Assembly (NCBI GenBank): GCA_964415615.1
Contig: CAYQAW010000001.1
Location: 40,593-104,592, forward strand
Direction: 5' to 3'
DNA length: 64,000 bases
Source of the DNA: an uncultured Gammaproteobacteria bacterium
GTDB lineage: Bacteria; Patescibacteriota; Microgenomatia; Daviesbacterales; UBA10151
Each line of letters opens with the position of its first letter. Position 1 is the first letter of the stretch. The notes under the pieces are model-generated. The model was given only the letters and a program-made list of their open reading frames with translations, had not been told where the DNA came from and made no database searches. The translations under genes were made by a program, and so were the position numbers. This document shows positions 5,284-60,431 of the stretch, in pieces.

Positions 5284-6252
5284 TTAAATCCTTTTTCCTT
5301 CAATTACTTCAGCTGCTATGATTTGAAATACCACTGCCATTGGAACTGCCAGCAATGCCCCTGGAATACCAAGTAATCTACTGCCTATAGCAATTGCCAA
5401 AATTACCACCAAAGGATTTAATCCCACTGCCCTCCTCATCACTTGAGGCACAATTAGATGATTTTCCATTTGTTGAATTATCAAATACATTGCAGCTACA
5501 CCAACACTCAAAACAGGAGAAATAGTCAATGCCAAAAAAATAGCCGGAATCGCCGAAATTATTGGTCCCATAACAGGTATTACTTCCATAATCCCAGCTA
5601 TTAAAGCAAGCGGTAAGGCAAAAGGAATGCCTAAAATTGTCAAACCTATATAAGACAATACTCCAATCAACAAAGACAAGATTAATTGACCTTGTAACCA
5701 GGCTCCTAATTTCCCTTCAATTTTAATTATAGATCTCCTAATCCTTTCTTCTCTACTTCCAAATAATGAAGCAAAACGGCTTTCAAGATTATCTTTGTCC
5801 AACAGCATATAAAAAGTCAGCACCAGTAAAAATACTATGGTAAGTATATTATCAAAAATAGAAATGGTGATAGAAAATAAATTTTTTGAAAAAGATGTAA
5901 GTTCTGAGGAAAAAACAGACTTATCAATATTGGTGATATTAAAAAATTGAGCTATCAAAGACGGCGAGGCTACTATCAACCTTGTAGTTTGTTCAATTAA
6001 AGGAGGCGATATACTCACAATCAACCCCGCTATAATTACTATTATAATAATGTAGGTAATTGCAATACTTAATGCTTTCGGTACTTTTAATCTGATCAAT
6101 GCTTCTACCAAAGGAGACAAGGCTGAAACAAAAATCACTGCCACAAATAGAATGATCAGAAGATCACGGATTAAATAAGTAACCCAAAGAGCTAATATAA
6201 AAATTGCTGTAAATATTACTGTCCTATGAGAAATATCAATCTTGTGTGACAT
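5284..6252 (-). CDS. AI-2E family transporter (PerM/YhhT-like, UPF0118)
   Basis: 322 aa with multiple TMs. The N-terminus FVAVIFVSALSPLVEALIRLKVPKALSIAITYIIIIV and the overall topology are typical of AI-2E family permeases. Confidence 0.65.
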   Translation of the reverse strand: MSHKIDISHRTVIFTAIFILALWVTYLIRDLLIILFVAVIFVSALSPLVEALIRLKVPKALSIAITYIIIIVIIAGLIVSISPPLIEQTTRLIVASPSLIAQFFNITNIDKSVFSSELTSFSKNLFSITISIFDNILTIVFLLVLTFYMLLDKDNLESRFASLFGSREERIRRSIIKIEGKLGAWLQGQLILSLLIGVLSYIGLTILGIPFALPLALIAGIMEVIPVMGPIISAIPAIFLALTISPVLSVGVAAMYLIIQQMENHLIVPQVMRRAVGLNPLVVILAIAIGSRLLGIPGALLAVPMAVVFQIIAAEVIEGKRI

Positions 6253-7210
6253 CTGCAGCTTGATGATACCATTTAACTATTACTTTTTCCACATTACCAG
6301 AAAGATATTGATCAGTTATATCAAACCATTCAATATCTTTCTCTTTTTTAAACCAGGTTTGTTGCCTCCGGGCATACCCATGAATTTTTCCTTGCATAAT
6401 CTTAATTAAATCTTCTTTACTAATAATCTTTCCCTCTAAAAAATCAGCCAATATTCCATATTCTAATCCCAACTGCCTCATTCTTCTAAGACTCAAACCT
6501 GCTTTATGTAATCTTTCTGCCTCATGAATCATTCCCTGATTAATCCTAGAAATAACCCGTTCATCAATTCTTCTGTAAAGAATATCCCTGGGAGCATTTA
6601 ACCCAATCTTTAAAAGATTAGCTTGCTTAAATCCTAAATCATAAATCATAAATCTACTCTTTTTCGGTCTTACCATTATCATTTCTATTGCCCTAACAAG
6701 TCTCCTAGGGTTGTGTCTATCAGACCCATTAAGGCTTTCCCATTTATTTTTATCTAGATTTTGTAACTTTTGTTGTAATTGCTCTTTAGAAAGCTCCTGC
6801 AATTCCTTTCTTAAATCTTTATCTACAGGAATAACTAGATTTGGTAAGCCTTCAAGCAATGCTTTTAGATACAAACCAGTTCCACCTACAATAATTGGCA
6901 GTTTCTCTCTACTTAAGATATTATCCACAACTTTGTTTGCATCTTTAACATAATTATAAACTGTATATTGCTGTCTAAAATCCACCACATCATACATCCA
7001 GACTTTTACCCCATCCATCTCCCAAAACCCTTTACCTTTTTCAACTACTACTTGCTTATCTGGAAGCTTACCTGTCCCAATATCTAATTTTTTGTAAACC
7101 TGCCTTGAATCACAACTGACCAACTCTCCATTAAACTTCTTAGCTAACTTTAGAGCTAAATCTGTTTTACCAGTTGAAGTAGGACCCACGATCATCAATA
7201 ATTTATTCAT
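6236..7210 (-). CDS. miaA: tRNA dimethylallyltransferase
   Basis: P-loop N-terminus LLMIVGPTSTGKTDLALKLAKKFNGELVSCDSRQVYKKLDIGTGK. This is the classic MiaA start. Confidence 0.85.
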   Translation of the reverse strand: MNKLLMIVGPTSTGKTDLALKLAKKFNGELVSCDSRQVYKKLDIGTGKLPDKQVVVEKGKGFWEMDGVKVWMYDVVDFRQQYTVYNYVKDANKVVDNILSREKLPIIVGGTGLYLKALLEGLPNLVIPVDKDLRKELQELSKEQLQQKLQNLDKNKWESLNGSDRHNPRRLVRAIEMIMVRPKKSRFMIYDLGFKQANLLKIGLNAPRDILYRRIDERVISRINQGMIHEAERLHKAGLSLRRMRQLGLEYGILADFLEGKIISKEDLIKIMQGKIHGYARRQQTWFKKEKDIEWFDITDQYLSGNVEKVIVKWYHQAADVTQD

Positions 7211-8760
7211 TAGTAATTTCTATAGATATAGAAGCTGGTAGTACCATCAGGTTCTGAGATACTTCTAGCTAACCGCAAGGAGGATATCTGTGTAGATAAA
7301 TTGCCTATATGATCAAAACGGGTAACAACGATGCTATTTGGATTAAACACTGCTTGGCCTAGTGTTAAAGGATCAAAGAAGAAGGTTTTGCTAAAAAGAT
7401 CCTCTCTATTATGTTTTATTAAATTAAACCGCCAATACCTATCCGTATAATAGTAAATTCTATTGTCAAAATAGATGGTCTTTGCAGATTTTATATTCTC
7501 CTCCGACAGTACCGCATCCTGCACCCCTAAAATATCGTAATCAAACCAAACATACGACCTTGTTCTATAATCGTTAAAATAATCATGCAAGAAAAAAGCA
7601 AATTGAATAGGAACTGAGATTATTAATATTAAAACTAAAATTTTAGCTAATTTATTGCGTGAGAATAACAAAAATTTAACTGCTGAGGTGGCCAGCAAAG
7701 CAGCAAAAGGTAAAATAAATAATTCCTTAGAAGCCCTATATTCGTTTCCTACTAAAGCTGCAGCGCTAGGAGCAGTAAAAAAGCCCATTATAAGCAGCAA
7801 ATTAAACCAGCCTCTTCTTTTGAAAGCCTGGTATATACCTAAAGGGAGCAATATCACAAATGGTAATAAGAAAACTCCAATTTTACCTGTAGAATGAATT
7901 AAACTAGAATCCCCTTTAAAAAATAAAAAAATTGGATCGAAATACTTAAGATAAACTACCACCATTTGAGTTATTCTTGCCGGCGTTAATAGCGTTATCA
8001 AACCTTCTAAAGGATTTAATTTTGTATTATATAATCCTGTATAACGTACTTGATCTGTCAAAGTATCAGGATATTGTGACAACCAAGGGATAAGAGGTAA
8101 CAACGGCAGAATAAAAGCCAATAAAGGAATCAATATTAAAGCCTTGCTTTTTTTATATCTAAGCGAAACAAGCCATAAAGTGAATAGTATATAAATTGGC
8201 ATAATCACCTTTGTTGCATGATAGCTATGTATACCTATACCTAATAAAAGTGTAGATAAAAATAAAAACCACAAGTTTTTTTTGGAAAAAAATAGATGAA
8301 TTAATACCATCCATCCTAATACAAAAGGTATGGGAAAAAGATTATCAAGTAAAATTCTACTCTGAATAAAGTGCACCGGGGTTAAGGCAAGAAAAAATGC
8401 GGCCAGTAAACCTAATTTTTCACTATCAAATATCCTCTTTGCTAAAAAATAAATTAGAATTATATTTAAAAGCCCTATCATAATGCTCGGCAATCTAATA
8501 GTTATTTCTGAAAGAGGTAATACTGTTAAAAAAAGGGCTGTTAGATATACAATTATTGGAGTGGCCCACATTACTCCAAGATGCCAAAAATACAGAGGGA
8601 AAAACCGGCCGTTCTCGTCAAAACCAGTTTTTGCAATCGAATAAGCATTTAAAGAAAAACCTAACTCATCCCGGTTAAGATGCACTGGAACTTTATCTAA
8701 AGAATAAGTATAAAAAAAACTAACTATTATCAGCAGTAAGATTATTTTAATTTTGCTCAT
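7210..8760 (-). CDS. GT-C fold membrane glycosyltransferase (GT39/ArnT/PMT-like)
   Basis: 516 aa and polytopic. The N-terminal loop DKVPVHLNRDELGFSLNAYSIAKTGFDENGRFFPLYFWHLG resembles polyprenyl-phosphate-sugar-dependent mannosyltransferases. Confidence 0.6.
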   Translation of the reverse strand: MSKIKIILLLIIVSFFYTYSLDKVPVHLNRDELGFSLNAYSIAKTGFDENGRFFPLYFWHLGVMWATPIIVYLTALFLTVLPLSEITIRLPSIMIGLLNIILIYFLAKRIFDSEKLGLLAAFFLALTPVHFIQSRILLDNLFPIPFVLGWMVLIHLFFSKKNLWFLFLSTLLLGIGIHSYHATKVIMPIYILFTLWLVSLRYKKSKALILIPLLAFILPLLPLIPWLSQYPDTLTDQVRYTGLYNTKLNPLEGLITLLTPARITQMVVVYLKYFDPIFLFFKGDSSLIHSTGKIGVFLLPFVILLPLGIYQAFKRRGWFNLLLIMGFFTAPSAAALVGNEYRASKELFILPFAALLATSAVKFLLFSRNKLAKILVLILIISVPIQFAFFLHDYFNDYRTRSYVWFDYDILGVQDAVLSEENIKSAKTIYFDNRIYYYTDRYWRFNLIKHNREDLFSKTFFFDPLTLGQAVFNPNSIVVTRFDHIGNLSTQISSLRLARSISEPDGTTSFYIYRNY

Positions 8761-11050
8761 TGTATTTTCTTTTTAATAAATTTCTTGACAAGATAAATAA
8801 AACCGCCACCAAGGACATGATTGACAACACAATCGATTCATTAAGATAAGATGGTTTATATTTGAATTCAATAATATTTGAGCCAGCTGGAGCCTTGACC
8901 GCTCTAAATAAATAATTGGCTTGATATATAGATATTTCCTTACCATTCAAGTAAGCTTTCCAACCCGGAAAATTAGTGTCAGTTAGAACCAGTATGCCGT
9001 CATTAGATGAAATATAATCAATCTTTACGTAATCTGACTTATAAGTAGAGATTATCCCGGGTTTGATAGTAGTAGAATTACCTATTCCATTAAATTCTCC
9101 CGTATCTTTAGTTTCTAAAATAACAGTATTGGGATCAAAATTCTCTGCAGTTACTAAACTAAAAGCCTCTGAATCATTTTTTGCTTGAGACCATTGACTT
9201 GTTATATAAACTCTTGGTAAAGGACTATCAACAATTACTAAGCTATTGTTAAAATAAAGATATCTTACTGACCCAATCTTAAACAGATCTGTTTTACCTG
9301 CAAACCATTGCCTCTCTGCTTCATTCTGCCATTTTTCAAATCTCTTTAGCGGTAATGAAGCAAAACCATTAGCCTCCGGTATATGATGGGGTATCAATTG
9401 ATCAGGCATTAATCCGGTCCAGTCATGACTGAATGTATAGACCCGACCCGTGCTGTATGTTAATTCATTTTTCAACTTATTAATAGTAGAATCTTCACTG
9501 TTAATAAGTTCATTGAAATTTTTCCAGATATTTACTTTACTTGCAAAAAAGAATAAATCTGCAATAACAAATATAATAATAGCCATCTTAATGATGAAGG
9601 CCCTAAACCCATTACAAATTAATATAATAATTAATGCTGATAAGCTAATAAAAATTAATCCTATTTTTGTTTGTTCTTGGAAAGAATACAAAACCATCCG
9701 CTGCATAGAAGCAGGATTACCCAAATCTGTCACATAACCTAATTTTGAATAATTTTGTAGGATAAAATCGTAAATCTGTCCCGGATAAAATCTTGCAAAC
9801 GAAAAACCTACTATCACAACAATAAAGATTAAAAAGCTTGCTAAAATAATAGTTCCATTAATTTTAATTCCTTTTAATTCCCTCCGTTGGAATAGTACGG
9901 TGAATCCTAATCCTGCTAAGATTGCCAAGGAAAAATCAACTAGAAAAAGAAACCTTCCGGGAGCTCTTAGACCATCAAAGATCGGAATATGTAATAAAAT
10001 TTTATACAAGGGGGTATTTTTACCAAGAGCTAATATTAAACTAATCAACAAAAGCATAAAGAATAACATTGCCTTTTTTCTTGTTTCTTTTAAAAATGCA
10101 AAAGACGCAAGAAATAACGTTATAATTCCAACGTACCCCGTGGTTTCTATTTGACCCCAATAACCCCAAAAATGCCAAGTCATAGATGCTGTCCAGGGCT
10201 GCAAACTATTGAAATAAAAATTGGGAAAGAAAAAAGTAATAAAATCGAAAAAAGAGAACGATGAATTTGTGGCATCAGCAAAGCTAACACCCTGATTCCT
10301 TATAGATAGAAGGATTAATCCTATTGAATATAAAACATAGGGCAGAGAAATCATGAGGGCTATCCCTAACATGATAAATATCCCTACGATATTAAATATT
10401 TTAGATTGCGACCTTAGAAATAAATATAAGGTTACATAAATTATTGTCATTATGGGAATATTGGGATGACCCGTAAGAAGCTGTAAACCAAATGATGCAC
10501 CAGCTAATATAAAATACTGCTGTTTTTGTCTTGAAATTGCTAACTCTATAAAGAGTAATATTAATGGTAAATAAGCATAGGCATAAATATGACTAAAATA
10601 TTGCATATGGGCGATAATGAAACCATTAAACATAAAGACCACTCCAGCAAATAGAGCTGCAAATCTATTTAGGTTAATTTTCCTTGCAAAAAGATAAGTA
10701 CACATTCCGGCCAAGAAAACATGAAGAAAAGAAAGAATAAATACCGTCAGACGAAGTGGCAAAAAAATATGTATAATACTCAATGGATAAAACCAAGGTA
10801 TTTGTCCATCTCCTCCAATTGGAAATCCAAAATATATATCAGTTGTCCATAATGGCAAATGCAAAGACTTAAATGCTTCATCCATCAAATATATAAATGG
10901 AAGTACTATTTTGGGAGTATCAAAACCCCAAATTATTTGATCGCCAAAAAAACCGTTGAAGAAATATACAAAGCTTAGTAGAAATAGAACTAAAATAACT
11001 GTTAAAGCTTTATAGTTTGCAAAAAGTTTTTTAAATTTATGGATTTCCAT
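8747..11050 (-). CDS. YfhO-family membrane protein (GT-C-like putative glycosyltransferase)
   Basis: 767 aa, with a polytopic N-terminus plus a large C-terminal extracytoplasmic domain. The size and hydropathy pattern fit the YfhO family. Confidence 0.55.
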   Translation of the reverse strand: MEIHKFKKLFANYKALTVILVLFLLSFVYFFNGFFGDQIIWGFDTPKIVLPFIYLMDEAFKSLHLPLWTTDIYFGFPIGGDGQIPWFYPLSIIHIFLPLRLTVFILSFLHVFLAGMCTYLFARKINLNRFAALFAGVVFMFNGFIIAHMQYFSHIYAYAYLPLILLFIELAISRQKQQYFILAGASFGLQLLTGHPNIPIMTIIYVTLYLFLRSQSKIFNIVGIFIMLGIALMISLPYVLYSIGLILLSIRNQGVSFADATNSSFSFFDFITFFFPNFYFNSLQPWTASMTWHFWGYWGQIETTGYVGIITLFLASFAFLKETRKKAMLFFMLLLISLILALGKNTPLYKILLHIPIFDGLRAPGRFLFLVDFSLAILAGLGFTVLFQRRELKGIKINGTIILASFLIFIVVIVGFSFARFYPGQIYDFILQNYSKLGYVTDLGNPASMQRMVLYSFQEQTKIGLIFISLSALIIILICNGFRAFIIKMAIIIFVIADLFFFASKVNIWKNFNELINSEDSTINKLKNELTYSTGRVYTFSHDWTGLMPDQLIPHHIPEANGFASLPLKRFEKWQNEAERQWFAGKTDLFKIGSVRYLYFNNSLVIVDSPLPRVYITSQWSQAKNDSEAFSLVTAENFDPNTVILETKDTGEFNGIGNSTTIKPGIISTYKSDYVKIDYISSNDGILVLTDTNFPGWKAYLNGKEISIYQANYLFRAVKAPAGSNIIEFKYKPSYLNESIVLSIMSLVAVLFILSRNLLKRKYNEQN

Positions 11051-11105
11051 TAAAATGCAGCTACGTAAAGTATATTATAATGAGAATCAATATACTAAAT
11101 AATTT

Positions 11106-12335
11106 ATGATTAAAAGGATTATTTTTTTGATTTCATTATTAAGATTCGCCTTTATTTTAGTTCCTAGTTTCAAAATAGATATGACAGATTGGCAGGCTTG
11201 GAGTGCCAGAATAGCAGAGGTTACTCCACTTCATTTCTACAACCCGAATTATTTCGCTGATTATTTTCCCGGATATCTCTATATGCTTTGGTTCTTAGGT
11301 AAGTCTTTCTATATTCTACTCCCGCATTTATCTGTATTTAGTATCGAATTCGAGATCTACTTAAAATTATTTACTAATCTATTTGATTTAGGAACTGCAT
11401 ACTATATTTATAAGATTGTTTACAGGTATCAACATAAATTTGCATTAATTGCTCCAATTTTTTATCTTGCTAATCCTGCTCTTGTTTTCAATTCTTCTGT
11501 TTGGGGACAAGTCGATGGGATTCTAGCATTTTTCCTAGTTTATTCTGCATATTGTTTAATAGAGCTCAAAAAAGCTTATCGTTCTAATTTCTTTTCGGCT
11601 TTGTCAATTATTATCAAACCTCAAGGATTAGCAATATTTCCAGTTATGATTATTTATCTTCTTTCGAATTTTAACTTCAAAAAGTACTTTAGTTTATTAA
11701 TAATCCCCGCTCTACTGATTCTCCTCTCTTTGCCGTTCTTTCTAAAAGATCCAATACTAGGACTCTTACATCTATTTCAAAAAAGCGCTAATACATATCC
11801 TTATACCTCAATGTTTTCCTATAACTTCTGGTCCTTTGCTGGATGGTGGAAACCAGACTCAACTAGATTTTTAGACCTTACTTTTCAAACCTGGGGAATA
11901 GCATTTTACCTAACATCATTAATCTTTATCTCGCTACCTTTAATTTTTAGAAGGAATCAGGATAACTTTTCTATATATTTTGCCTTGGCTTTAGCAAGCT
12001 TTGCATTTTTTCTATTCTTAACTAGAATTCACCAACGATATCTTTTTCCATTTTTTTCATTTCTATTAATCACCACTTTTATAAAAAACTCCTTGAAACT
12101 AAAAACTATTTATATTGCTCTTTCCTTAATCCATTTCATTAATCTGTGGTACGTTTATTATTACTATAATTATGTATATCTAAATCCTAAATTTTCATCT
12201 CTTTTAATTTACAAATTCTTAAGCGCAAACTATAATTTATTCACCCTGCTTAATTTGTTTGGTTTCGGATTATTGGTCTTGATATATTATAAAGCTGGAT
12301 ATACTAAGAAAAATCATGTTCAAAAAATTTCTTAA
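11106..12335 (+). CDS. membrane glycosyltransferase, DUF2029/GT87-like (mannosyltransferase-like)
   Basis: 409 aa and polytopic. Loop motifs MTDWQAWSARIAE and YNPNYFADYFPGYLY are typical of DUF2029 (PIG-M-like) GT-C enzymes. The family assignment is tentative. Confidence 0.45.
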   Translation: MIKRIIFLISLLRFAFILVPSFKIDMTDWQAWSARIAEVTPLHFYNPNYFADYFPGYLYMLWFLGKSFYILLPHLSVFSIEFEIYLKLFTNLFDLGTAYYIYKIVYRYQHKFALIAPIFYLANPALVFNSSVWGQVDGILAFFLVYSAYCLIELKKAYRSNFFSALSIIIKPQGLAIFPVMIIYLLSNFNFKKYFSLLIIPALLILLSLPFFLKDPILGLLHLFQKSANTYPYTSMFSYNFWSFAGWWKPDSTRFLDLTFQTWGIAFYLTSLIFISLPLIFRRNQDNFSIYFALALASFAFFLFLTRIHQRYLFPFFSFLLITTFIKNSLKLKTIYIALSLIHFINLWYVYYYYNYVYLNPKFSSLLIYKFLSANYNLFTLLNLFGFGLLVLIYYKAGYTKKNHVQKIS

Positions 12336-13530
12336 ACCAAGAAGTATTTTAATTACAATTTTAATTGTAACAGCTTTTCTTCGCTTGTACCGCCTGGATT
12401 ATCCAAATAAATATGTCTTTGATGAAGTTTACCATGCTTATACCGCTAAAGAATATTTAAAGGGTAACAAAGACGCCTGGAGCCCCTGGGGTAAATCACC
12501 GCCAGGCGTGGCTTTTGAATGGCTGCATCCACCTATTGCCAAAGAACTCATGACAGCTTCAATGTTTATCCTGCATAACACTGATGCTTGGGCTTATAGA
12601 TTACCAGGGGCTCTCTTAGGAATCTTATCAGTATTTTTAGTTTATAAATTAGCAATATTGCTTTTAAAAAACGAGACTGCTGCCTTACTGTCTGCTTTTA
12701 TTTTTTCCATTGACGGATTAGTCTTTGTCCAATCTAGAACTGCTATGAATGACGCTTATCTTGTAGCTTTTATTTTACTAAGTGTTATTTTTTTCGTAAA
12801 ACAAAGATATATTTTAGCAGCGGTTTTCATGGGTATATCTATGTCCACAAAGTGGACGGGAGTTTATTTAGTTCTTTTTTATTTACCAATTCTTTTATAT
12901 CAACGCCAGTTCAGTAAACTAAGCTATTTTATACTAATCCCTCCTATCATTTATTTCATAAGCTACATTCATTATTTTTTGATGGGTTATAATTTAAGTG
13001 ATTTACTCGAATTACACAAGCAAATTTGGTGGTATCAAACTCACTTAAAAGCAACACATGCTTATTCTTCTCCCTGGTGGTCATGGCCACTTAATTTATA
13101 TCCAGTTTGGTATTTCGTGGATTATCAAAAAAATAACATTGCTAATATCTTTGCCTCAGGCAATCCTGTTGTTTTTTGGGTAGGTAGCGCTACTGTAATA
13201 CTTACGATGATAGAAGCAATAAAGAAAAAAGCTTTAAATCTATTATTAATTTCATTGGGATTTATTGTCTTCTGGTTACCATGGGCGCTGTCTCCTAGAA
13301 TTATGTTCTTATATCATTTCAGTCCTTCTGTTCCATTTCTATCCCTTGCTTTGGGTCACCAGTTAAATTCAATTTTGAAGAACAAAGAAGAAAGGAAATT
13401 AGCTATAACTATTCTAATCCTGATAATATTAAGTTTTATTTTGCTCTTTCCATTTTTAACAGGAGTACCTATTCCAAGAAGTTTTGTTAAAATATTTTTC
13501 CTCTTTAATTTATCAAAAAATCCTTTTTAA
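12316..13530 (+). CDS. protein O-mannosyltransferase-like GT39 family membrane protein
   Basis: 404 aa. YVFDEVYHAYTAKEYLKG is the PMT/GT39 DE-motif loop (FDEVH). The protein is polytopic. Confidence 0.7.
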   Translation: MFKKFLKPRSILITILIVTAFLRLYRLDYPNKYVFDEVYHAYTAKEYLKGNKDAWSPWGKSPPGVAFEWLHPPIAKELMTASMFILHNTDAWAYRLPGALLGILSVFLVYKLAILLLKNETAALLSAFIFSIDGLVFVQSRTAMNDAYLVAFILLSVIFFVKQRYILAAVFMGISMSTKWTGVYLVLFYLPILLYQRQFSKLSYFILIPPIIYFISYIHYFLMGYNLSDLLELHKQIWWYQTHLKATHAYSSPWWSWPLNLYPVWYFVDYQKNNIANIFASGNPVVFWVGSATVILTMIEAIKKKALNLLLISLGFIVFWLPWALSPRIMFLYHFSPSVPFLSLALGHQLNSILKNKEERKLAITILILIILSFILLFPFLTGVPIPRSFVKIFFLFNLSKNPF

Positions 13531-13535
13531 AAAAA

Positions 13536-13820
13536 TCATTCATTCTTCCCAAAAACCCAAGGTGTCTGAGTTTTAACCTGTTTCTCTTTTTTTCTATTCT
13601 TATTCAATAAATCACTCTTTTCTAACATCCTAGCTACCCTAATAACTGTGTCTGTACCTACTTTCATTTGCTCGGCTATTTTTCTAATAGACAAACCTTT
13701 CTCAAGATACTGAATAATTTGCCAGCGGTTCTTCAACATTCTTATTTCAGACGGCGTGAGTAAATTAGCAATAACATAATCAGGAACAGAAATATTTTTA
13801 ACTTTAAGTGGTTTTGCCAT
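13536..13820 (-). CDS. TrpR-like DNA-binding protein (YerC/YecD family)
   Basis: 94 aa. PSEIRMLKNRWQIIQYLEKGLSIRKIAEQMKVGTDTVIRVAR matches the TrpR-related YerC/YecD family. Confidence 0.6.
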   Translation of the reverse strand: MAKPLKVKNISVPDYVIANLLTPSEIRMLKNRWQIIQYLEKGLSIRKIAEQMKVGTDTVIRVARMLEKSDLLNKNRKKEKQVKTQTPWVFGKNE

Positions 13821-13831
13821 GTATTCTTATT

Positions 13832-14719
13832 TTATATTACCCAATCTTTAAAATTATTGGCAAACTTATAATTAGGTTTTGCAGCCAAGGATTCATCTAA
13901 GAATCCTCCTATTGCCCGTGCTGCCAGTACTACTTTTAATTTATCCTTTTTATATCCTCTCATCAGTAACCTGGAATAAATATCTTGAGCAATTAAGGGA
14001 TTTTTCAAAACACTAAAAACTCTTTGAATAAAATAACAGATATCATAATTTTCAACGCTATTTGGCTTAGCATGCTCCCCATCAATTAACCCTAATCTAC
14101 CTTCTCTTAAATTTAAAATATGCCAAGGCGCAAAATCACCATGCCTAGGATAACCTATTAATTCACCAACTCCTTTTTCAACAATCTCCAAAAGAAGTTC
14201 CAGTTTATACTTTTTGCGGATACCAACTGGGACATCGGCAAACCATAGATTAACCTTATCAATAAATCTTTTCCTATAATCACCTTCTTCGTAAGGCATT
14301 TTTTGTATTAATTCAGCAAGCTCAATCACCTGAGATATATAATCTGTCAGATGAAATGACAGTAATTCTCCATCAAAAAATTCTGTAATTAAATAGAAAT
14401 ATTTCTTTTTATAAAAACCACTGTCATAATTTTTGGGGACATTATATAAAAAACCTGATGGAAAATATTTATTAAAATAATCATTCCAATTATATTCATT
14501 TTTGGTAATAACACTGATTCCCTCACTGGTTGATAATTTTAAAAAATAAGTCTCACTATTTTTTGTAAGAATTCCCAGCACATGCCTGCCCCCATTCCAG
14601 AGCTTTTTGACATAATAATTTTTAGAAAAGAATAATTCTATCTTACCAAGATCTAAATTTTCCCCGAGACGATAATCAAGGATTTTATTTCCAGAAACAA
14701 CCTTAAATGAGTTCAGCAC
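13832..14719 (-). CDS. protein kinase-like / aminoglycoside phosphotransferase (APH) family protein
   Basis: 295 aa. The catalytic-loop-like YPRHGDFAPWHILNLREGRLGLIDGEHA (HGDxxxxN...D) matches the APH/choline-kinase fold. Confidence 0.55.
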   Translation of the reverse strand: MLNSFKVVSGNKILDYRLGENLDLGKIELFFSKNYYVKKLWNGGRHVLGILTKNSETYFLKLSTSEGISVITKNEYNWNDYFNKYFPSGFLYNVPKNYDSGFYKKKYFYLITEFFDGELLSFHLTDYISQVIELAELIQKMPYEEGDYRKRFIDKVNLWFADVPVGIRKKYKLELLLEIVEKGVGELIGYPRHGDFAPWHILNLREGRLGLIDGEHAKPNSVENYDICYFIQRVFSVLKNPLIAQDIYSRLLMRGYKKDKLKVVLAARAIGGFLDESLAAKPNYKFANNFKDWVI

Positions 14720-22481: not shown

Positions 22482-23876
22482 TTAGTGACCACTCATATCC
22501 CAATCTTTACTAACTTTTTCAAATCTATCTAGTTTACCTTTCATAATTTCTTTTAATCTTTCCAACTCACTATCATCTTTAGCTTCAAACCTTAAAACCA
22601 GTGTAGGAGTATTGGAGGAAGCCCTTACTAATGCCCAACCTTTATCTGTATAAACCCTGGCTCCATTAATATCTATTACTTTATAACCTTCTGCTTTAAA
22701 TTCAGAAGTCAGCTCATCAACAATATCATATTTATCTTCATCTGTGGTTTTAACTTGAATAGTAGGAGTAGAAATATAATAAGGCGTACCATCAACAATT
22801 TCTGATAGTGGTTTATTTTGTGTTGCCAAATACTCTAAAAGTTTTAAGGCAGCAATCATGCTGTCATCAAAACCATAATAGCCATCTGCAAAAAAGATGT
22901 GTCCGCTCATCTCTCCCGCCAATGCTGCTTTTTCTTCATGCATTTTGGCTTTAATGTGCGAGTGACCAGTCTTCCACATGATTGGTATTCCACCATGAGC
23001 TTTGATATCCTCCGGTAAGGCCTCTGAAACTTTAACATCAAAAATTATTTTTGCTCCAGGTCTTTTTGACAAAACCAATCTTGATAGTAAAATCATATAA
23101 CGGTCTGGCCAAATAATATTCCCCTTTTCATCAACCAATCCTAACCTGTCTCCGTCACCATCAAAGGCAAACCCTAAATCACACTTATTTTTGATAGTTT
23201 GTTTAGCAGTATCCTCCATCATGGCAGTCCCATCTGGGTTAGGGGTATAGTTTGGGTAAGTTGGGTCAACATTAGTAAAATGCTCAACTACCTCGCATCC
23301 AGCATCTCTTAAGATATCTGGAACAAAAAGTCCAGCAGTACCATTACCGGTATTTACCAAAACTTTAAACTTCTTTTTAATATCAACTTTGGAAACTAAA
23401 TCCTGTTTGTAAGCCTCAGATACATCTTCTTTTCTGATTGTACCTTTACCATCCACAAAATCTTCTTTAGCTATAATATTGTAGACTTCTTGAAGTTCAT
23501 CAGTTAAAAGTGTATAGGAAAAATCTGATCCCAGTTTTACTCCATTCCATCCTGCTGGATTATGAGAAGCTGTTACAGTGAGTAAACCTTTAATTTTTAA
23601 ATGATATTGAGACCAATAGCCCATTGGGGTAGTGACAGTTCCTGTATCAATAACATTGATGCCACTTTCAGTTAAACCTTTAATTACAGCTTTGTGAAAA
23701 CTTTCAGAAGTGCCTCTAGCATCATGTCCTACTACTGCTTCTGCAATGTCCCGCTTTTGCAAAAATGCCCCAAAACCTCTACCGATATAGTACATGGAAT
23801 CTTCATTTAATTCATCAGGTGCTTCGCGACCGCGCATATCATATTCGCGGAACATGGTTTTTTTCAGTATTGGCAT
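22482..23876 (-). CDS. phosphomannomutase/phosphoglucomutase family protein
   Basis: Active-site TASHNPAGWNGVKL, metal loop DGDGDRLGLVD and sugar loop GEMSGH are present. Confidence 0.8.
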   Translation of the reverse strand: MPILKKTMFREYDMRGREAPDELNEDSMYYIGRGFGAFLQKRDIAEAVVGHDARGTSESFHKAVIKGLTESGINVIDTGTVTTPMGYWSQYHLKIKGLLTVTASHNPAGWNGVKLGSDFSYTLLTDELQEVYNIIAKEDFVDGKGTIRKEDVSEAYKQDLVSKVDIKKKFKVLVNTGNGTAGLFVPDILRDAGCEVVEHFTNVDPTYPNYTPNPDGTAMMEDTAKQTIKNKCDLGFAFDGDGDRLGLVDEKGNIIWPDRYMILLSRLVLSKRPGAKIIFDVKVSEALPEDIKAHGGIPIMWKTGHSHIKAKMHEEKAALAGEMSGHIFFADGYYGFDDSMIAALKLLEYLATQNKPLSEIVDGTPYYISTPTIQVKTTDEDKYDIVDELTSEFKAEGYKVIDINGARVYTDKGWALVRASSNTPTLVLRFEAKDDSELERLKEIMKGKLDRFEKVSKDWDMSGH

Positions 23877-42337: not shown

Positions 42338-42685
42338 CTACTTTGTACACCCATCTGGATAATTTCCTTCAAAACCAGGTCTACACAAAGAAGAACCTCC
42401 ATGGTAATTAGAGCAAAAGTTATTACCTGCATTACCTTCAAAACCTGTTGTACAACTTACATCCTGAGGAAATTGAGTACTAGAAACAGATGATTTAAAA
42501 ATTTTATCTTTAAAAATAAAAACTGCTACCCCTATAATTAAAAATATAACTATTATAACCACTGGTAGCAAAAAATTCTTTTTAGCTCCAGGTACATTTG
42601 GAACTATTTTAGGGTCAGCTATAATTACCTGAGGCTGCGGAGCAATTGGTGATTGAGTAGGTGCTTGAGATTGTGTCGGCTCCAT
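42338..42685 (-). CDS. small membrane protein with a Cys-rich extracytoplasmic tail (hypothetical)
   Basis: 115 aa. Pro/Gln-rich N-terminus, one TM (LLPVVIIVIFLIIGVAVFIF), then CTTGFEGNAGNNFCSNYHGGSSLCRPGFEGNYPDGC with a GFEGN repeat. Confidence 0.45.
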   Translation of the reverse strand: MEPTQSQAPTQSPIAPQPQVIIADPKIVPNVPGAKKNFLLPVVIIVIFLIIGVAVFIFKDKIFKSSVSSTQFPQDVSCTTGFEGNAGNNFCSNYHGGSSLCRPGFEGNYPDGCTK

Positions 42686-42740
42686 ATCATATTTTGCTCA
42701 TGAATTATCTTTTCTGTCAAATTTTAGATTTAAACCAGTG

Positions 42741-42774
42741 ACAAAATACCCTACGGCCGTATGCAAAATTGTCA
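42741..42774. repeat. direct repeat copy 1 (34 nt) containing the palindrome TACGGCCGTA, flanking the PIN/HTH cassette
   Basis: ACAAAATACCCTACGGCCGTATGCAAAATTGTCA. The second copy at 43514-43547 differs at 4 positions. Confidence 0.7.
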
Positions 42775-42788
42775 AAACTTTTTGGTAA

Positions 42789-43205
42789 TTATTGCAAGCT
42801 TCTTAAATACTGTAAAAATCTTGCCGGAGTTGTTACTACGATCTTCAATTCTTGGATAATTTTATCAATCTTAAAATCCTTTGTATTATACGAAAGAAGG
42901 TATTTTGCCTTTGCTTTCTTCACACCAGCAATTATGTGAACATCGTCTAAATCCAAAGTATAATTTTTGAAGCTTTTTTTTACTTCTTTTAATTGAACAA
43001 CATTTAATTTTTCTTTGACTACTTCTGCTAATTTATCTTTATTAAGCCCTAACCGGTCGCATACCTGCTCTAATTCTTCTATGGATTTATTTGAAACAAA
43101 AGATTGTAGATCAGTTTCATGGATAATGAAATATGCTGCACCTTTATCAGATATCAACGAAGAGATGATCACATCGGAGTCTAGAAAAACTTTTTTTCTT
43201 TTCAC
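42789..43205 (-). CDS. PIN-domain toxin (VapC-like)
   Basis: 138 aa. N-terminus KVFLDSDVIISSL and C-terminus DLDDVHIIAGVKKAKAKYLLSYNTKDF are present. The acidic-residue layout fits a PIN fold. Confidence 0.6.
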   Translation of the reverse strand: MKRKKVFLDSDVIISSLISDKGAAYFIIHETDLQSFVSNKSIEELEQVCDRLGLNKDKLAEVVKEKLNVVQLKEVKKSFKNYTLDLDDVHIIAGVKKAKAKYLLSYNTKDFKIDKIIQELKIVVTTPARFLQYLRSLQ

Positions 43206-57254: not shown

Positions 57255-57628
57255 ATATTATCTAAATAATTTTGTAATATTTCTGCAGCTGAAAAATCAT
57301 CTTCATAACGGCGTTTTTTTCTTCCTCTGCCTTGGTCAATCATTGCCTGTAAAGCTTTTTTACTAGATAATGTCTCATCAGCAGTTACTACATCAAATCT
57401 CATTTTTTTTAAGGCATTAATAAATCCAGTCACATTTTTGCCCATTTTTCCTTCTGGTAAACCTACAACTATTTTTTGAAATCCACCATCTTTTATCACT
57501 TGTGAAGTTTTTTCTACAGCATCAGAAAAATTTTTAACCTCTATAATCTGCCAGGGGGAAACAAATTCACCTTCTGATATAGCCAAACCAATTCTTCTTT
57601 GACCAAAATCTACTCCTAAATACTTCAT
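57251..57628 (-). CDS. ruvX: putative pre-16S rRNA nuclease / Holliday junction resolvase-like RuvX (YqgF)
   Basis: MKYLGVDFGQRRIGLAISEGEFVSPWQIIEV. Confidence 0.85.
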   Translation of the reverse strand: MKYLGVDFGQRRIGLAISEGEFVSPWQIIEVKNFSDAVEKTSQVIKDGGFQKIVVGLPEGKMGKNVTGFINALKKMRFDVVTADETLSSKKALQAMIDQGRGRKKRRYEDDFSAAEILQNYLDNI

Positions 57629-58266
57629 ATCATCTTACCCAAAACTACTAATCTCTTAAGATTTAAACCAGGTGGCACACAAGTCATCAAAGAAATATAT
57701 CTTCCCTGATCTTCTGGTGATTGCAATACTGATAAATCTGAAGGATCAACTATTTTAAATCCAACAACTTCATAAATAAATTTTGTTCCAGGAGTTTCGA
57801 TAATTATTTGATCTCCTTTTTTTAAATCAGGTAATTTAGAAAAAGGCACACTCTTTACTGCAAGAAATTGGCTTAAAGCAGAATGACCGGAAATAAATAA
57901 ATTACCCTTTTCTCCTGGCAAAGCAGAACCAGGAAGTTGGGCTAAGCCTTTTGATAAATCGTTAGTATCCACAAAGACATCTGTTTTATTTATTTTAAGA
58001 GCTGGAATAGACAAGTTAAACCTATCATAATTAGGCTGAGTTTCGCGTTTAAGAGAAGAAATAAATGCAGAAAAACTATCTTTATTTTGAACTGAAATCC
58101 CTAAAACTTCTTTCGTTGATTTTATAGGACTGATTAAAATCTGGTTCTGATATTGTTGTCCTAGCTGCCAAATTTGGAATGATATTACTGGTAAAATTAC
58201 CTGCATCAGAATAAAAACCCCAATCGCTAAAAATCCTACAGAGATAAATTTTGAGATGGCTATCAT
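57625..58266 (-). CDS. sortase family transpeptidase
   Basis: N-terminal TM, an active-site-like His (ISGHSALSQF) and the TLxTC catalytic Cys motif (ISLMTCVPPG). Confidence 0.7.
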   Translation of the reverse strand: MIAISKFISVGFLAIGVFILMQVILPVISFQIWQLGQQYQNQILISPIKSTKEVLGISVQNKDSFSAFISSLKRETQPNYDRFNLSIPALKINKTDVFVDTNDLSKGLAQLPGSALPGEKGNLFISGHSALSQFLAVKSVPFSKLPDLKKGDQIIIETPGTKFIYEVVGFKIVDPSDLSVLQSPEDQGRYISLMTCVPPGLNLKRLVVLGKMI

Positions 58267-60431
58267 TTCAATCCTACCTCAATTTTGATGTTTTTTATCA
58301 AAAGAGGCAGACGCGATAAAGGTTTTGGCAAATTTGGAGTCAAACTGATTTCAGAACTTAAAATATTATCCATACCTTTTAATATGTCCGTAACCTGATC
58401 CGGAGTCTTAAATTTAATTTGATTTTTAATCTTATCTGTATCAATCTTAGGTATAAACTTTGCTTTGAATTTTGCTAAAAATATTAATTTCCCATCCTTC
58501 TCTAGTTTAGAAATATCTGCTTGTGTCTCAGTTGCTGAAAGGTCAAGCGTAAAACCATCAGGTACTTGCAAATTAACTAGCTTTGAAACAATAGTTCGCA
58601 GATCAGTGTCATCAAAAGCTGTTCCTTTATAATCTACAGCTAGATTAAGAGAAAACTCACTTGCCTGGTCATTAATATTTTTGCTGTAACTCTTTCTAGT
58701 AATACTCTCTAATAAAGCCTCCTCCAGAATTTTTTTGTTAGGATATTTATCCTGTAATTTTTGCTGTGCTTGTTGTCTTAAGTCAGAAGATAATTTAGCA
58801 AGAAGTTTTTGCTGATCTTCGCTTGATACAACAGTAACATCTTTCGAGGTGCCTCCAGAAAAATTACCCTGGGTCTTACCAACAAACTGATCAGCTGTAA
58901 ATTTACCAATTGTTAATTTAGTCTCAGAGGGAATATTACCGTCAGCTCCAATCGCAACTGCAGTTGCTTGCGCTGTCACTGTACTCTTTGAAGCAGAGTC
59001 TGAAAGTGTTGCTGAAACAGAAGCAGTATTATCTAATTTGAACTTAATACCCCCTGAAGAGATCAATGTTGTCCCTGCTGAAAAATTTTGCCCTTGGGCA
59101 GTATTGTTGATAATTACTACTGTTCCTTTAGCAGGATCACCAATTTGTCTTTTGCCAGAAGCTGTATCTTTTGCCGATCCTGATACTTCTATCTCTACCA
59201 TCTGTCCCGGGATTATCTTATTATTCTCATCCACCGTCTTTTGACCCGGATCTGCCACCACCTGGGCATCTTTTTCTATAATCTTTGGCTCAACAAATAT
59301 TTTGATATCTGCTTTAACCAGTAAAAAATAGGCGATTGCAAATAAAACAACTACACCAAACACAACAATTGGAATTAGTTTTCTAAAACTAAATTTTGGT
59401 TTCAGTTTTTTTTCATTAGCAACTGGTTGCCCCAAATCCCTTTCAAAATCATCAATTTCTAAAGGAGGCTGCTGGAAAGATGCAATGTTTGATTCTTCTG
59501 GTATAACCTCATCTTCAGAAACTTCATCTTTCTCTACATCGCCAACTACAAATCCAAAATTATCTTCTGTTTCTAGCACTTGTTCCTTTGGGGTATCTTT
59601 TTCTACTTCCGTTTCCTCTATGGCTACTTTCTCTATATGTTTTTCTACTTCGTGGTCCGAATATGAAATATTTCCATTTATTTCTGACCCCCCAGCCAAA
59701 CAAATACTTTTAATTTCCAAATCCTGACCTAATTCATCTATTTTAGGAAGATGCAAAAAAGAGAGTTTTGACATCCAGGCAAAGGATGATAGTTGGCTTT
59801 TTAATCCGCCAGTCCCGATTGAATCGGGGCCAGCTGACGGACCATAGATTAAAATCTTAGAAGGCAAAGTCTCAATATCTGTAAAAGTAAGCAAAGCTTT
59901 CTCAATGTCTGTTCCAGAACTTTCGCCTCTTTTGATTACTTTTACCCCGTCCAATTTACCAGCCCTTACTATTGTCACTGTCAAGTGTAGTTTTTGAAAA
60001 CCTACTAATATTGCAGTTGTGGGAATACCATCTTGTTTTTCTAAAAAGTGAATTAATGCATTACTAGTTGACACATAAGCCATCGGAGTAAGCTCTAATT
60101 CTTTAACAAAACTACGCAGTATTTTTAAATATTCATCTTTTAGGCTATCATCGGATAACCAGGAAGCAGGCACCCCAAAAAGAATTTTTTGAGGCTCAAT
60201 CTCTTTTAACCCCAAGACCTGATCAAGTAATTTATCAGACACAGCAATAATCTCATCATTTGATGAGTAGGCCTCGGAAGCTGTACTCAAAATCTTAAGC
60301 TGTCTGCCTTCAACAGTCCACAGAGCTGCTGTTAAACTGTCTGTTCCAATGTTAATGGCAAAAAAATATTCTAACTCTTGCGCCTTTTTTCCAAACGGCA
60401 AAAAGGCAGTCACTTTGTCAAGGAAACTCAT
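58263..60431 (-). CDS. bitopic membrane protein with an N-terminal actin-like ATPase (FtsA/PilM-like) domain, one TM and a large extracytoplasmic C-terminal domain
   Basis: 722 aa. FAINIGTDSLTAALWTVEG (phosphate-1-like) and ICLAGGSE (adenosine-motif-like) are present, then an acidic linker, a TM (LIPIVVFGVVVLFAIAYFLLV) and about 350 aa of Ser/Thr-rich extracytoplasmic sequence. There is a 4-nt overlap with the sortase gene. Confidence 0.45.
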   Translation of the reverse strand: MSFLDKVTAFLPFGKKAQELEYFFAINIGTDSLTAALWTVEGRQLKILSTASEAYSSNDEIIAVSDKLLDQVLGLKEIEPQKILFGVPASWLSDDSLKDEYLKILRSFVKELELTPMAYVSTSNALIHFLEKQDGIPTTAILVGFQKLHLTVTIVRAGKLDGVKVIKRGESSGTDIEKALLTFTDIETLPSKILIYGPSAGPDSIGTGGLKSQLSSFAWMSKLSFLHLPKIDELGQDLEIKSICLAGGSEINGNISYSDHEVEKHIEKVAIEETEVEKDTPKEQVLETEDNFGFVVGDVEKDEVSEDEVIPEESNIASFQQPPLEIDDFERDLGQPVANEKKLKPKFSFRKLIPIVVFGVVVLFAIAYFLLVKADIKIFVEPKIIEKDAQVVADPGQKTVDENNKIIPGQMVEIEVSGSAKDTASGKRQIGDPAKGTVVIINNTAQGQNFSAGTTLISSGGIKFKLDNTASVSATLSDSASKSTVTAQATAVAIGADGNIPSETKLTIGKFTADQFVGKTQGNFSGGTSKDVTVVSSEDQQKLLAKLSSDLRQQAQQKLQDKYPNKKILEEALLESITRKSYSKNINDQASEFSLNLAVDYKGTAFDDTDLRTIVSKLVNLQVPDGFTLDLSATETQADISKLEKDGKLIFLAKFKAKFIPKIDTDKIKNQIKFKTPDQVTDILKGMDNILSSEISLTPNLPKPLSRLPLLIKNIKIEVGLK

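Follow-up and report, generated by a model that had tools for sequence, protein, structure and literature searches.

A conserved and often fused pair of GT-C membrane glycosyltransferases at a variable locus of Candidatus Daviesbacteria

Results

A recurrent two-enzyme module

Comparative analysis of four adjacent genes for GT-C-fold membrane glycosyltransferases (A to D; Table 1) indicates that only two of them, C and D, form a conserved module, in which a PMT-type enzyme (D) is coupled to a partner (C) that lacks a Pfam assignment. This partnership recurs in very distant bacteria and some archaea and is so far unstudied: literature searches on Patescibacteria GT39, on Gpi18-like/COG5542 proteins and on the pairing of GT39 with GT87 yielded no account of the module, and the C partner had previously been annotated only as a 'hypothetical protein'. 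As a tentative reading, to which we give slightly less than an even chance, the C-D core would carry out protein O-glycan initiation (D) and extension (C), with A and B as variable extras.

Table 1. Positions of the glycosyltransferase genes, the gap between the two divergent units and the mutase discussed in the text
Feature	Coordinates	Strand	Length	Description
Gene A	7210-8760	-	516 aa	PMT_2/ArnT-like GT-C glycosyltransferase
Gene B	8747-11050	-	767 aa	YfhO-family GT-C; opens the minus-strand unit
B/C gap	11051-11105		55 bp	Divergent intergenic region, AT-rich; sequence read directly
Gene C	11106-12335	+	409 aa	GT-C without Pfam assignment; ALG6/ALG3/PIG-M/PimE structural neighborhood
Gene D	12316-13530	+	404 aa	PMT-type (GT39-like) GT-C without MIR domain
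Mutase	22482-23876			PGM/PMM-type enzyme

Surveying 80 C-containing species genomes/loci, we found a D homolog at 57, with the combination occurring in CPR, Clostridia, Armatimonadota-like, Eremiobacterota-like and Bathyarchaeia representatives. The two are adjacent (within 300 nt) in 25 of the 80 loci and are fused in one ORF at 17, including that of the cultured isolate Clostridium sp. AF37-5. C-D fusions make up 53 of the best 150 family representatives; in these as at the 17 loci C invariably precedes D, and some fusions accommodate an F5/8 type C sugar-binding domain between the two. Within CPR, C and D are adjacent in 20 of 23 cases, mostly sharing the overlap of about 20 nt seen here, and the pair is kept in one relative (L006) despite wholly different surrounding genes. 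C and D are translationally coupled in the present locus and correspond to a widespread two-domain C-D protein that is here divided in two; they therefore very probably function as a single physical unit, the putative complex being suggested by the fusion and coupling.

Organization of the locus

The window, as we term the whole 64-kb stretch of DNA analyzed here, belongs to a Candidatus Daviesbacteria member, a groundwater bacterium with a tiny genome. The ORF list, in conjunction with Pfam and structure comparisons, yielded four adjacent ORFs at 7210-13530, all coding for GT-C-fold glycosyltransferases; in coordinates and strands (7210-11050 on the minus strand, 11106-13530 on the plus strand), as in the recognition of four polytopic GT-C enzymes, this agrees fully with the initial annotation of the region. 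A transporter identity was ruled out, as profile searches gave no transporter assignment for any of the four proteins and all matched GT-C only. We likewise ruled out recent paralogy among them (hhalign probabilities <=8%). The reading frames of B and A overlap by 14 nt, D begins within the last 20 nt of C, and the start of miaA coincides with the stop codon of gene A. Both divergent promoters presumably sit in the B/C gap; a consensus promoter scan was uninformative (32 sites versus 35 expected in such AT-rich DNA), and a promoter and terminator scan gave no gain over shuffled sequence. Horizontal transfer was rejected as the source of the low GC of the region because its GC3 (0.26-0.275) is like that of the rest of the window (0.21-0.30); the low GC is a product of amino-acid composition and not of foreign origin.

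The interval between miaA and HU differs in gene content in every Daviesbacteria genome examined, with A-type, YfhO, X411, PIG-V-like, DUF2079 and extra PMT_2 genes being found there. This variability, along with the lack of recent paralogy within the set of four, would fit a scenario in which functionally unrelated enzymes, having only the donor type in common, were gathered at a recombination-prone spot between miaA and the HU/RNase Y/recA block. We consider such an origin improbable: the linkage and fusion of C and D across phyla exclude it for the core pair, the frame overlaps of B-A and C-D are typical of co-translation, and every insert at this position is a GT-C gene, a pattern that favors a functional island over a neutral hot spot. 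The arrangement is not due to chance, given that C-D adjacency is kept across phyla and that YfhO is also divergent from C-D in a second Daviesbacteria contig.

D is a PMT family member

D combines an N-terminal PMT module (PF02366; 85 bits, cut-off 22.7, E 8e-24) with a C-terminal four-helix PMT_4TMC module (PF16192; 75.8 bits, cut-off 32.4, 4.3e-21). The yeast Pmt1 structure 6p25 matches D at 2e-13, with FDEV pairing with FDEV, and the PMT_4TMC part aligns to Pmt1 residues 534-702. The initial identification of a PMT-type enzyme with an FDEVH loop is thus borne out, the loop being the peptide YVFDEVYHAYTAKEY (D residues 33-47), which includes D36-E37. Across 29 family members from several phyla, R23, D36-E37, H71-P72-P73, R95, R141 and R328-x2-F331 are invariant, and D133 is conserved in 28. 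D accordingly displays three features of PMTs, namely an Asp-Glu in the first outer loop, a second Asp, and an Rx2[Y/F] motif in loop 5; its D36-E37, D133 and R328-x2-F331 correspond to D74, D176 and R441-x2-Y444 (the Rx2Y motif), which are essential in the M. tuberculosis PMT (PMC12331936). D, named 'phospholipid carrier-dependent glycosyltransferase' by NCBI, is much shorter than characterized PMTs, and with 60.8 bits against the NCBIfam model for the actinobacterial Pmt equivalog (PrMnsylTfPmt, cut-off 800) it does not reach the equivalog level. Judged by these profiles, it is a member of the PMT family but no ortholog of the actinobacterial enzyme.

C lies near the ALG6/PIG-M/PimE branch

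As a single sequence, C gave no Pfam match at E<=10 and none in NCBIfam or PDB sequence searches; a narrow C-family profile also had no Pfam, NCBIfam or PDB matches, and the tandem relative P0506 had no PDB sequence match. The only profile to recover a relationship was a phylum-spanning one, which reached GPI-MT-I at 5.5e-11. GT87 (PF09594) was reached by just two of 31 close family members (best E 4.4e-6) and PMT_2 by seven, and weak GT87 matches also came from some C-D fusion proteins; the label DUF2029 (Pfam GT87), which C had initially received, has no match in C itself and was abandoned. An assignment to class GT-C_B was similarly dropped, as ALG6, ArnT, PglB and PimE are all GT-C_A (PMC12041525). 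Structurally, C resembles the ALG6/ALG3/PIG-M/PimE branch over the TM1-7 module and the juxtamembrane helices, at 15-19% identity to the eukaryotic ALG6, ALG3 and PIG-M enzymes. D25, which is invariant in close homologs and at least 90% conserved across phyla, marks the start of a helix (residues 23-39) directly after TM1 and, together with K87, Q135, D137, K171, H309 and R311, belongs to a set of near-universal polar residues at the expected GT-C active-site positions. In PimE, D58 is at the tip of JM1, and K195 and H322 bind phosphate (PMC12041525); matched by position and conservation rather than by superposition, D25, K171, H309 and R311 of C would parallel these catalytic and phosphate sites.

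The obligatory pairing and fusion with D, taken with the dimeric action of eukaryotic PMTs (6p25/6p2r), would also fit a C that has the GT-C fold but no catalytic role and serves as a scaffold or substrate carrier for D, comparable to PIG-U in GPI transamidase or to the two-subunit Pmt1-Pmt2 dimer, with a single sugar being transferred. This is very improbable in view of the near-universal retention of the above polar residues, the existence of C-C tandem proteins, and the Bacteroidota homologs of C, which have D in 0 of 14 loci and GT2 in 5 of 14. These homologs, with GT2 and without D, suggest therefore that C can act on its own.

A and B as strain-variable accessories

Comparison with close Daviesbacteria relatives marks A and B as strain-variable accessories: in L001, L003 and L005 they are absent or swapped for other GT-C families, with B missing from all three and found in L089. 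The single dedicated four-enzyme pathway envisaged by the initial annotation is not upheld, since only C and D are conserved and A and B come and go.

B matches Pfam YfhO (PF09586; 58.3 bits, cut-off 28.5, E 6.6e-16) in two stretches, the membrane and C-terminal regions, and most of the 120 homologs listed bear PF09586; this is in line with its original YfhO label and with the name 'YfhO family protein' given by NCBI to an identical protein. Its D44, in the first outer loop, is the same in all of 29 diverse homologs. A matches PMT_2 (PF13231; 48.8 bits, cut-off 26.1) and, marginally, Pfam PMT (25.3 versus a cut-off of 22.7); Pfam detected no PMT_4TMC in it, so that A does not have the PMT plus PMT_4TMC architecture. 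D31-E32, an acidic pair in its first outer loop, does not vary across 34 sequences; the fold of A resembles ArnT, AglB, ALG12 and Pmt4 to an equal degree, and the protein carries a small C-terminal α/β outer domain (about residues 425-516). Of the two GT39 enzymes originally proposed, D hence stands and A does not. Neither A nor B had matches in PDB sequence searches.

Supply of the lipid-linked sugar

A gene for a GT2 polyprenyl-phosphate sugar synthase of the GtrB/PgfS/ArnC type lies beside C in 33 of the 80 related loci; the GT2 next to C in relatives matches PgfS over its full length (3.3e-84) and ArnC at 1.2e-51. A polyprenyl synthetase is encoded upstream of the C-D fusion in seven loci, the position being directly upstream in Eremiobacterota-like genomes. 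These associations give comparative support to the use of polyprenyl-phosphate-linked sugars, as originally suggested. The synthase whose presence the initial annotation had proposed to check was found neither in the 64-kb window nor within 10 kb past either end, as judged by Pfam searches of the ORFs in the window, a GT2 HMM made from the relatives and run against all of these ORFs, and 10-kb walks past both ends. No GtrA/GtcA-type flippase was found among the window ORFs scanned, in the 10-kb flanks or among the small neighboring ORFs sampled in relatives. The mutase nominated as a precursor supplier is a genuine PGM/PMM-type enzyme (best match PgmG, 419 bits, under the equivalog cut-off of 600), but nothing links it to the cluster; 9 kb separates the two, with recA, recX, RNase Y, a tRNA gene and metK in between.

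Discussion

Protein or polymer as acceptor

We propose that each of the four enzymes works at the outer face of the cytoplasmic membrane, moving one sugar from a polyprenyl-phosphate carrier to an acceptor on that side. D, which retains the catalytic Asp-Glu together with residues for positioning phosphate and acceptor, would attach the initial sugar to Ser/Thr residues of exported proteins. C, which is ALG6/PIG-M/PimE-like and has both a conserved Asp where its first outer helix has its tip and a conserved Lys/His/Arg set, would add the next. We infer the order of action, the protein acceptor and the sugar identity; the division of labor follows by analogy the actinobacterial pathway, in which O-mannose chains are started by Pmt (GT39) and lengthened by PimE (GT87), with polyprenyl-P-mannose as donor (PMC12757957). 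A and B may elaborate this glycan, or else a wall polymer, with additional sugars and, being variable extras, may thereby cause related strains to display different surfaces. The donor would be made by a cytoplasmic GT2 and then flipped across the membrane, both functions presumably being encoded outside the window.

Several associations point in a different direction. In 10 CPR relatives an LCP (LytR-CpsA-Psr) gene immediately precedes C-D on the same strand, and in L006 one adjoins D; this position, like the F5/8 type C carbohydrate-binding domains of some fusions, suggests a glycan or wall polymer as the acceptor. In two Daviesbacteria relatives D is flanked by genes for ABC-2 exporters, the YfhO enzymes characterized so far add sugars to lipoteichoic and wall teichoic acids (PMC5836110, PMC8035078), and ALG6, ALG3, PIG-M and PimE, the structural neighbors of C, act on lipid-linked glycans and not on proteins. 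C-D might then, together with A and B, build or decorate a non-protein surface glycopolymer (a wall polysaccharide, teichoic-acid-like polymer or lipoglycan), to which sugars are added singly from polyprenyl-P-sugars, with an LCP enzyme finally linking the product to peptidoglycan, on the model of the mycobacterial GT-C enzymes for lipomannan, LAM and arabinogalactan. We regard this as a real possibility, albeit well short of an even chance. Protein Ser/Thr is the acceptor of every characterized PMT-family enzyme, and D keeps the acceptor-side motifs, Rx2[F/Y] and the H-x-Y-x-S...W-P loop; no LCP or polymer-synthesis gene is present in the 64-kb window; and the LCP adjacency is limited to one CPR lineage, where it may be inherited synteny.

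Implications

To our knowledge, bacterial protein O-mannosylation has been characterized almost wholly in Actinobacteria. The coupling of a PMT-type enzyme to an ALG6/PIG-M-like partner in many other phyla would broaden the known range of this modification; about a third of the sampled family representatives carry the fused pair, and the fusion in cultured Clostridia offers a tractable entry point. CPR bacteria live attached to other cells, and in them a glycan island that varies between strains around a constant core could plausibly determine recognition by host or phage. The C family also provides candidate prokaryotic relatives of ER-lumen glycosyltransferases.

More speculatively, and in our estimation rather unlikely, C-D could be an ancient two-enzyme GT-C machine of a PMT-type initiator and a PIG-M/ALG6-like extender, commonly accompanied by a Dol-P-sugar-synthase-like GT2 and in Bathyarchaeia also by a PIG-V-like enzyme. 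It would effect protein O-glycosylation far beyond the Actinobacteria, in CPR, Clostridia, Armatimonadota-like and Eremiobacterota-like bacteria and some archaea, perhaps with type IV pilus proteins among its targets, and no prokaryotic family would then be closer than C to the eukaryotic ER-lumen ALG and GPI mannosyl/glucosyltransferases, a group hitherto held to be eukaryote-specific (PMC4973528).

Comparison with known systems

Actinobacterial O-mannosylation relies on polyprenyl-P-mannose from Ppm1 (GT2), with Pmt (GT39) as the initiating enzyme and PimE or another GT87 member as the elongating one. The present system resembles it in that D has the PMT and PMT_4TMC modules and the DE motif without a MIR domain, in the partnering of a PMT with a short, all-membrane GT-C of the ALG6/PimE branch (C), and, by analogy, in the probable use by both enzymes of a lipid-phosphate sugar donor outside the membrane. 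It differs in that the C and D genes overlap or fuse, no such actinobacterial pairing being indicated in the cited literature; C, unlike PimE, is not GT87 by profile; D, besides its low equivalog score (60.8 versus 800 bits), is about 100 residues shorter than Pmt; there is no donor synthase nearby; and the host is a CPR bacterium.

Among three-component systems (GtrA/GtrB/Gtr*, CsbB/GtcA/YfhO and PgfS/PgfM1/PgfM2), parallels are seen in the YfhO family membership of B, in the full-length PgfS/ArnC-like GT2 of the relatives, and in the logic of a cytoplasmic lipid-sugar synthase serving an outer-face GT-C. Unlike these, the window has four GT-C genes with no GT2 or GtrA-type flippase found, and the core consists of two GT-C enzymes, not one. 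A differs from ArnT (GT83) and other PMT_2 enzymes in being equally similar to AglB, ALG12 and Pmt4; lipid A is not an expected acceptor in a CPR bacterium. C is set apart from the eukaryotic ER-lumen enzymes ALG6 (GT57), ALG3 (GT58) and GPI mannosyltransferase I/PIG-M (GT50) by its low identity and prokaryotic occurrence, and its acceptors cannot be Dol-PP-oligosaccharide or GPI. Finally, as in the yeast Pmt1-Pmt2 heterodimer, two GT-C modules, one of them a PMT, appear to be obligatorily associated; here, however, the fusions suggest an association of D with a partner from another GT-C family rather than with a PMT paralog.

Two divergent gene pairs coding for GT-C membrane enzymes

The proteins encoded in the window are 100% identical to those of a contig from a Candidatus Daviesbacteria MAG (GCA_016180885.1; Microgenomates group, Patescibacteria/CPR). 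Our ORF list exactly reproduced the coordinates that the initial annotation gave for four adjacent genes, A (PMT_2/ArnT-like), B (YfhO), C (GT-C without a Pfam family) and D (PMT-type; see table), and its recognition, from sequence alone, of a cluster of four predicted GT-C membrane glycosyltransferases was correct and is usefully refined here. The genes form two divergent units, B-A and C-D, on either side of a 55-bp AT-rich gap, with an overlap of 14 nt between B and A and of 20 nt between C and D. The low GC of the region stems from the first and second codon positions and reflects how hydrophobic the encoded proteins are in amino-acid composition, whereas its GC3 matches the remainder of the window and gives no sign of recent transfer. 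Pairwise hhalign comparisons ruled out recent paralogy among A, B, C and D.

The remaining genes of the window are of the housekeeping type (HU, RNase Y, recX, recA, metK, ribosomal protein operons, rpoB/C and alaS). In addition, a short ORF and a PIN_3-domain gene between fusA and tuf coincide with a local GC dip and look like a toxin-antitoxin pair inserted in the str operon; a second PIN/RHH pair lies just past the window end (L008). Elsewhere in the window, a sortase gene directly downstream of that for a 722-aa protein, whose only match is a weak one to Baseplate_J-like, suggests that the latter may be a sortase-anchored surface protein, and a further protein unites HTH_25 and Glucodextran_B domains in an unusual combination.

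Positions of the GT-C genes, their neighbors and related features in the window and in loci of relatives (L)
Feature	Sequence	Positions	Strand	Remarks
A	window	7210-8760	-	516 aa (ORF list)
B	window	8747-11050	-	767 aa (ORF list)
C	window	11106-12335	+	409 aa (ORF list)
D	window	12316-13530	+	404 aa (ORF list)
miaA	window	6236-7210		start touched by the stop codon of A
AI-2E family permease	window	5284-6252		overlapped by miaA
TrpR-like gene	window	13536-13820		convergent with D
ORF without family match	window	13832-14719	-	295 aa, GTG start; between TrpR-like gene and HU
ABC-2 exporter (ABC_tran, two ABC2_membrane_6 genes)	L001	12428-14980		in the place of the 295-aa ORF, beside D
ABC-2 exporter (same genes)	L089	686-3550		as in L001
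Mutase	window	22482-23876
ORF and PIN_3 gene	window	42338-43205	-	ORF of 115 aa without Pfam match
722-aa protein and sortase	window	57625-60431	-
HTH_25 + Glucodextran_B protein	window	63192-63830	-
Variable-island genes	L005	7588-9996, 12882-14279
Variable-island genes	L003	8751-9914, 12821-14203
Bathyarchaeia gene run	L040	6562-11766
LCP gene	L017	6858-7988
LCP gene	L006	12440-13483
Levybacteria-type pilus neighbors	L017-L027, L036	e.g. L017 10442-13234		PilN, PilO, Big_13/fn3 surface protein
Armatimonadota-like pilus neighbors	L034, L037, L046	e.g. L046, upstream of D		prepilin N-methylation-motif proteins, DUF4900, TgpA transglutaminase

Three known families and a candidate prokaryotic relative of the ER-lumen ALG enzymes

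Of the four genes, three are unremarkable representatives of known families, and NCBI had already named them. B belongs to the YfhO family (Pfam, 6.6e-16), with homologues that are nearly all PF09586 and an invariant D44. D, named 'phospholipid carrier-dependent glycosyltransferase' by NCBI, is by its sequence clearly a PMT-family enzyme: it matches Pfam PMT (8e-24) and PMT_4TMC (4.3e-21), and aligns with the yeast Pmt1 structure (2e-13) such that FDEV falls on FDEV and HPP-AK on HPPLAK. Across 29 family members from several phyla, R23, D36-E37, H71-P72-P73, R95, R141 and R328-x2-F331 are invariant and D133 is retained in 28; D74, D176 and R441-x2-Y444, which are essential in the M. tuberculosis PMT, are counterparts of conserved residues of D (PMC12331936). 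Orthology of D to the actinobacterial Pmt was ruled out with the equivalog model (60.8 bits vs a cut-off of 800).

C, a 'hypothetical protein' in NCBI, returned no match in Pfam, NCBIfam or PDB sequence searches. The structure modelled with 31 homologues has high confidence (pLDDT 92, pTM 0.92), a phylum-spanning C profile recovered GPI mannosyltransferase I by sequence (E 5.5e-11), and some C relatives match Pfam GT87, Alg6_Alg8 or ALG3. The first label for C, 'DUF2029', was hence in the right neighborhood, but membership in that family did not hold, as C itself lacks a Pfam match. Matched by position, without superposition, the conserved polar residues of C (D25, with which the first outer helix starts, K87, Q135, D137, K171, H309 and R311) would fall at the sites occupied in PimE by the catalytic D58 and by K195 and H322, which bind phosphate (PMC12041525). 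That C is non-catalytic is unlikely given this conservation, and the Bacteroidota, in which C is found with a GT2 but without D, also argue against it. In an earlier survey, the ER-lumen ALG enzymes were taken to be specific to eukaryotes, with prokaryotic matches that were very distant and PMT- or DUF2029-containing (PMC4973528); the C family is a candidate for a concrete and much closer prokaryotic relative of these enzymes, and we found no earlier placement of C in the ALG6/ALG3/PIG-M/PimE branch in the literature searched. Two C-family domains occur in tandem in the representatives P0431, P0448 and P0506; in the last, the N-terminal half matches Pfam Alg6_Alg8 (4.8e-12) and the C-terminal half GT87 (3.5e-19).

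C and D are linked and often fused across distant phyla

A scan at one genome per species provided 80 loci with a C relative, which were then analyzed by HMM and tblastn; a D-family gene was counted if inside the fetched flank (≤8 kb), and the group labels are our reading of the record titles. A D-family gene was thus found near C in 57/80 loci: 21/23 in CPR, 8/9 in Clostridia, 10/13 in Armatimonadota-like, 7/7 in Eremiobacterota-like, 2/2 in Bathyarchaeia, 9/12 in unclassified and 0/14 in Bacteroidota genomes. The two genes are adjacent in 20 of the 23 CPR loci, mostly with an overlap of ~19-20 nt as in the window, and the pair is intact in a CPR relative with wholly different surroundings (L006). 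In 17 loci, including that of the cultured isolate Clostridium sp. AF37-5, C and D constitute a single ORF of roughly 800-1333 aa; the AF37-5 fusion, at L029 7770-11771, is the one of 1333 aa. An exhaustive search with the C-family profile retrieved 8613 representatives at E≤1e-3, of which 1684 also reached E≤1e-30; both domains are present in 53 of the best 150, with C preceding D in every case (PMT and PMT_4TMC were confirmed by Pfam in 6 of 9 representatives scanned), and C-C tandems in 3. Together, gene order, overlap and fusion argue that C and D work together; no such unit of C with a PMT-type enzyme, conserved and often fused across distant phyla, was found in the literature searched. 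Seven of the loci (L009, L010, L015, L016, L018, L023 and L024) bear 'uncultured Gammaproteobacteria bacterium isolate binchicken...' titles; being syntenic to Daviesbacteria and Levybacteria loci at 40-70% identity, these records look mislabelled.

The surroundings of C-D are variable. Around C homologues in other Daviesbacteria, the frame miaA ... C-D ... HU/RNase Y/recX/recA is retained and all else differs: L001 has an A-type gene without YfhO, L003 and L005 have Pfam-less membrane proteins in place of A and B along with extra PMT_2 or DUF2079 genes, and in L089 YfhO is again divergent from C-D. Two of the families replacing A/B are themselves GT-C-like; one, X411, is a distant C relative (hhalign probability 89-93%), and the other groups with a Bathyarchaeia protein matching PIG-V/Mannosyl_trans2 (4.4e-12). 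The miaA-HU space in Daviesbacteria is a variable GT-C island, with X411, PIG-V-like, DUF2079 and extra PMT_2 genes instead of A/B. In the Bathyarchaeia locus L040, that PIG-V-like gene is followed by C, D (PMT-type, 619 aa) and a short DPM1/AglJ-like GT2; in L067, C, D (557 aa) and a GT2 are preceded by a different 639-aa gene. These runs resemble an ER-lumen toolkit.

Donor, acceptor and a proposed division of labor

A GT2 protein of 240-470 aa adjoins C in 33/80 loci. A representative with C-terminal membrane helices matches Glycos_transf_2 (2.4e-31), S. mutans PgfS over its full length (3.3e-84) and ArnC (1.2e-51), and is of the GtrB/CsbB type, which puts sugar onto polyprenyl phosphate (PMC11127046). 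In Eremiobacterota-like genomes, a polyprenyl synthetase gene directly precedes the C-D fusion. Neither the window nor the 10 kb past each of its ends encodes a GT2 of that type. The window's mutase is a true PGM/PMM type (best match PgmG at 419 bits, cut-off 600, vs 153 bits for bacterial GlmM); the initial annotation had offered it as a possible supplier of sugar-1-phosphate precursors, but nothing connects it to A-D.

The established GT-C mechanism predicts that A-D work at the membrane's outer face and draw on polyprenyl-phosphate monosaccharide donors (PMC12041525, PMC11127046). We propose that D would initiate a glycan and C would extend it, both acting as one complex, with A and B as possible strain-specific decorators; this would account for a constant C-D core amid changing GT-C genes. 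The main alternative to a protein acceptor would be a glycopolymer of the wall or a lipoglycan, consistent with the modification of teichoic acids by characterized YfhO enzymes (PMC5836110), an F5/8 type C domain in some C-D fusions, and ABC-2 exporters flanking D in two relatives. Moreover, in 10 CPR loci (L017 and nine others) C-D is directly preceded by an LCP (LytR-CpsA-Psr) gene in the same orientation, and in L006 such a gene lies beside D, a placement that hints at wall-polymer attachment. Type IV pilus genes, in turn, adjoin C-D in two unrelated lineages, Levybacteria-type CPR and Armatimonadota-like bacteria, and pilins could be acceptors. The sequence data do not separate the protein from the glycopolymer or lipoglycan acceptor. 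Our reading of C-D as a putative initiator/extender complex draws on the actinobacteria, where Pmt (GT39) starts O-mannose chains on exported proteins and PimE (GT87) lengthens them from the same lipid donor (PMC12757957); this Pmt/PimE pathway is the closest worked example for the C-D core.
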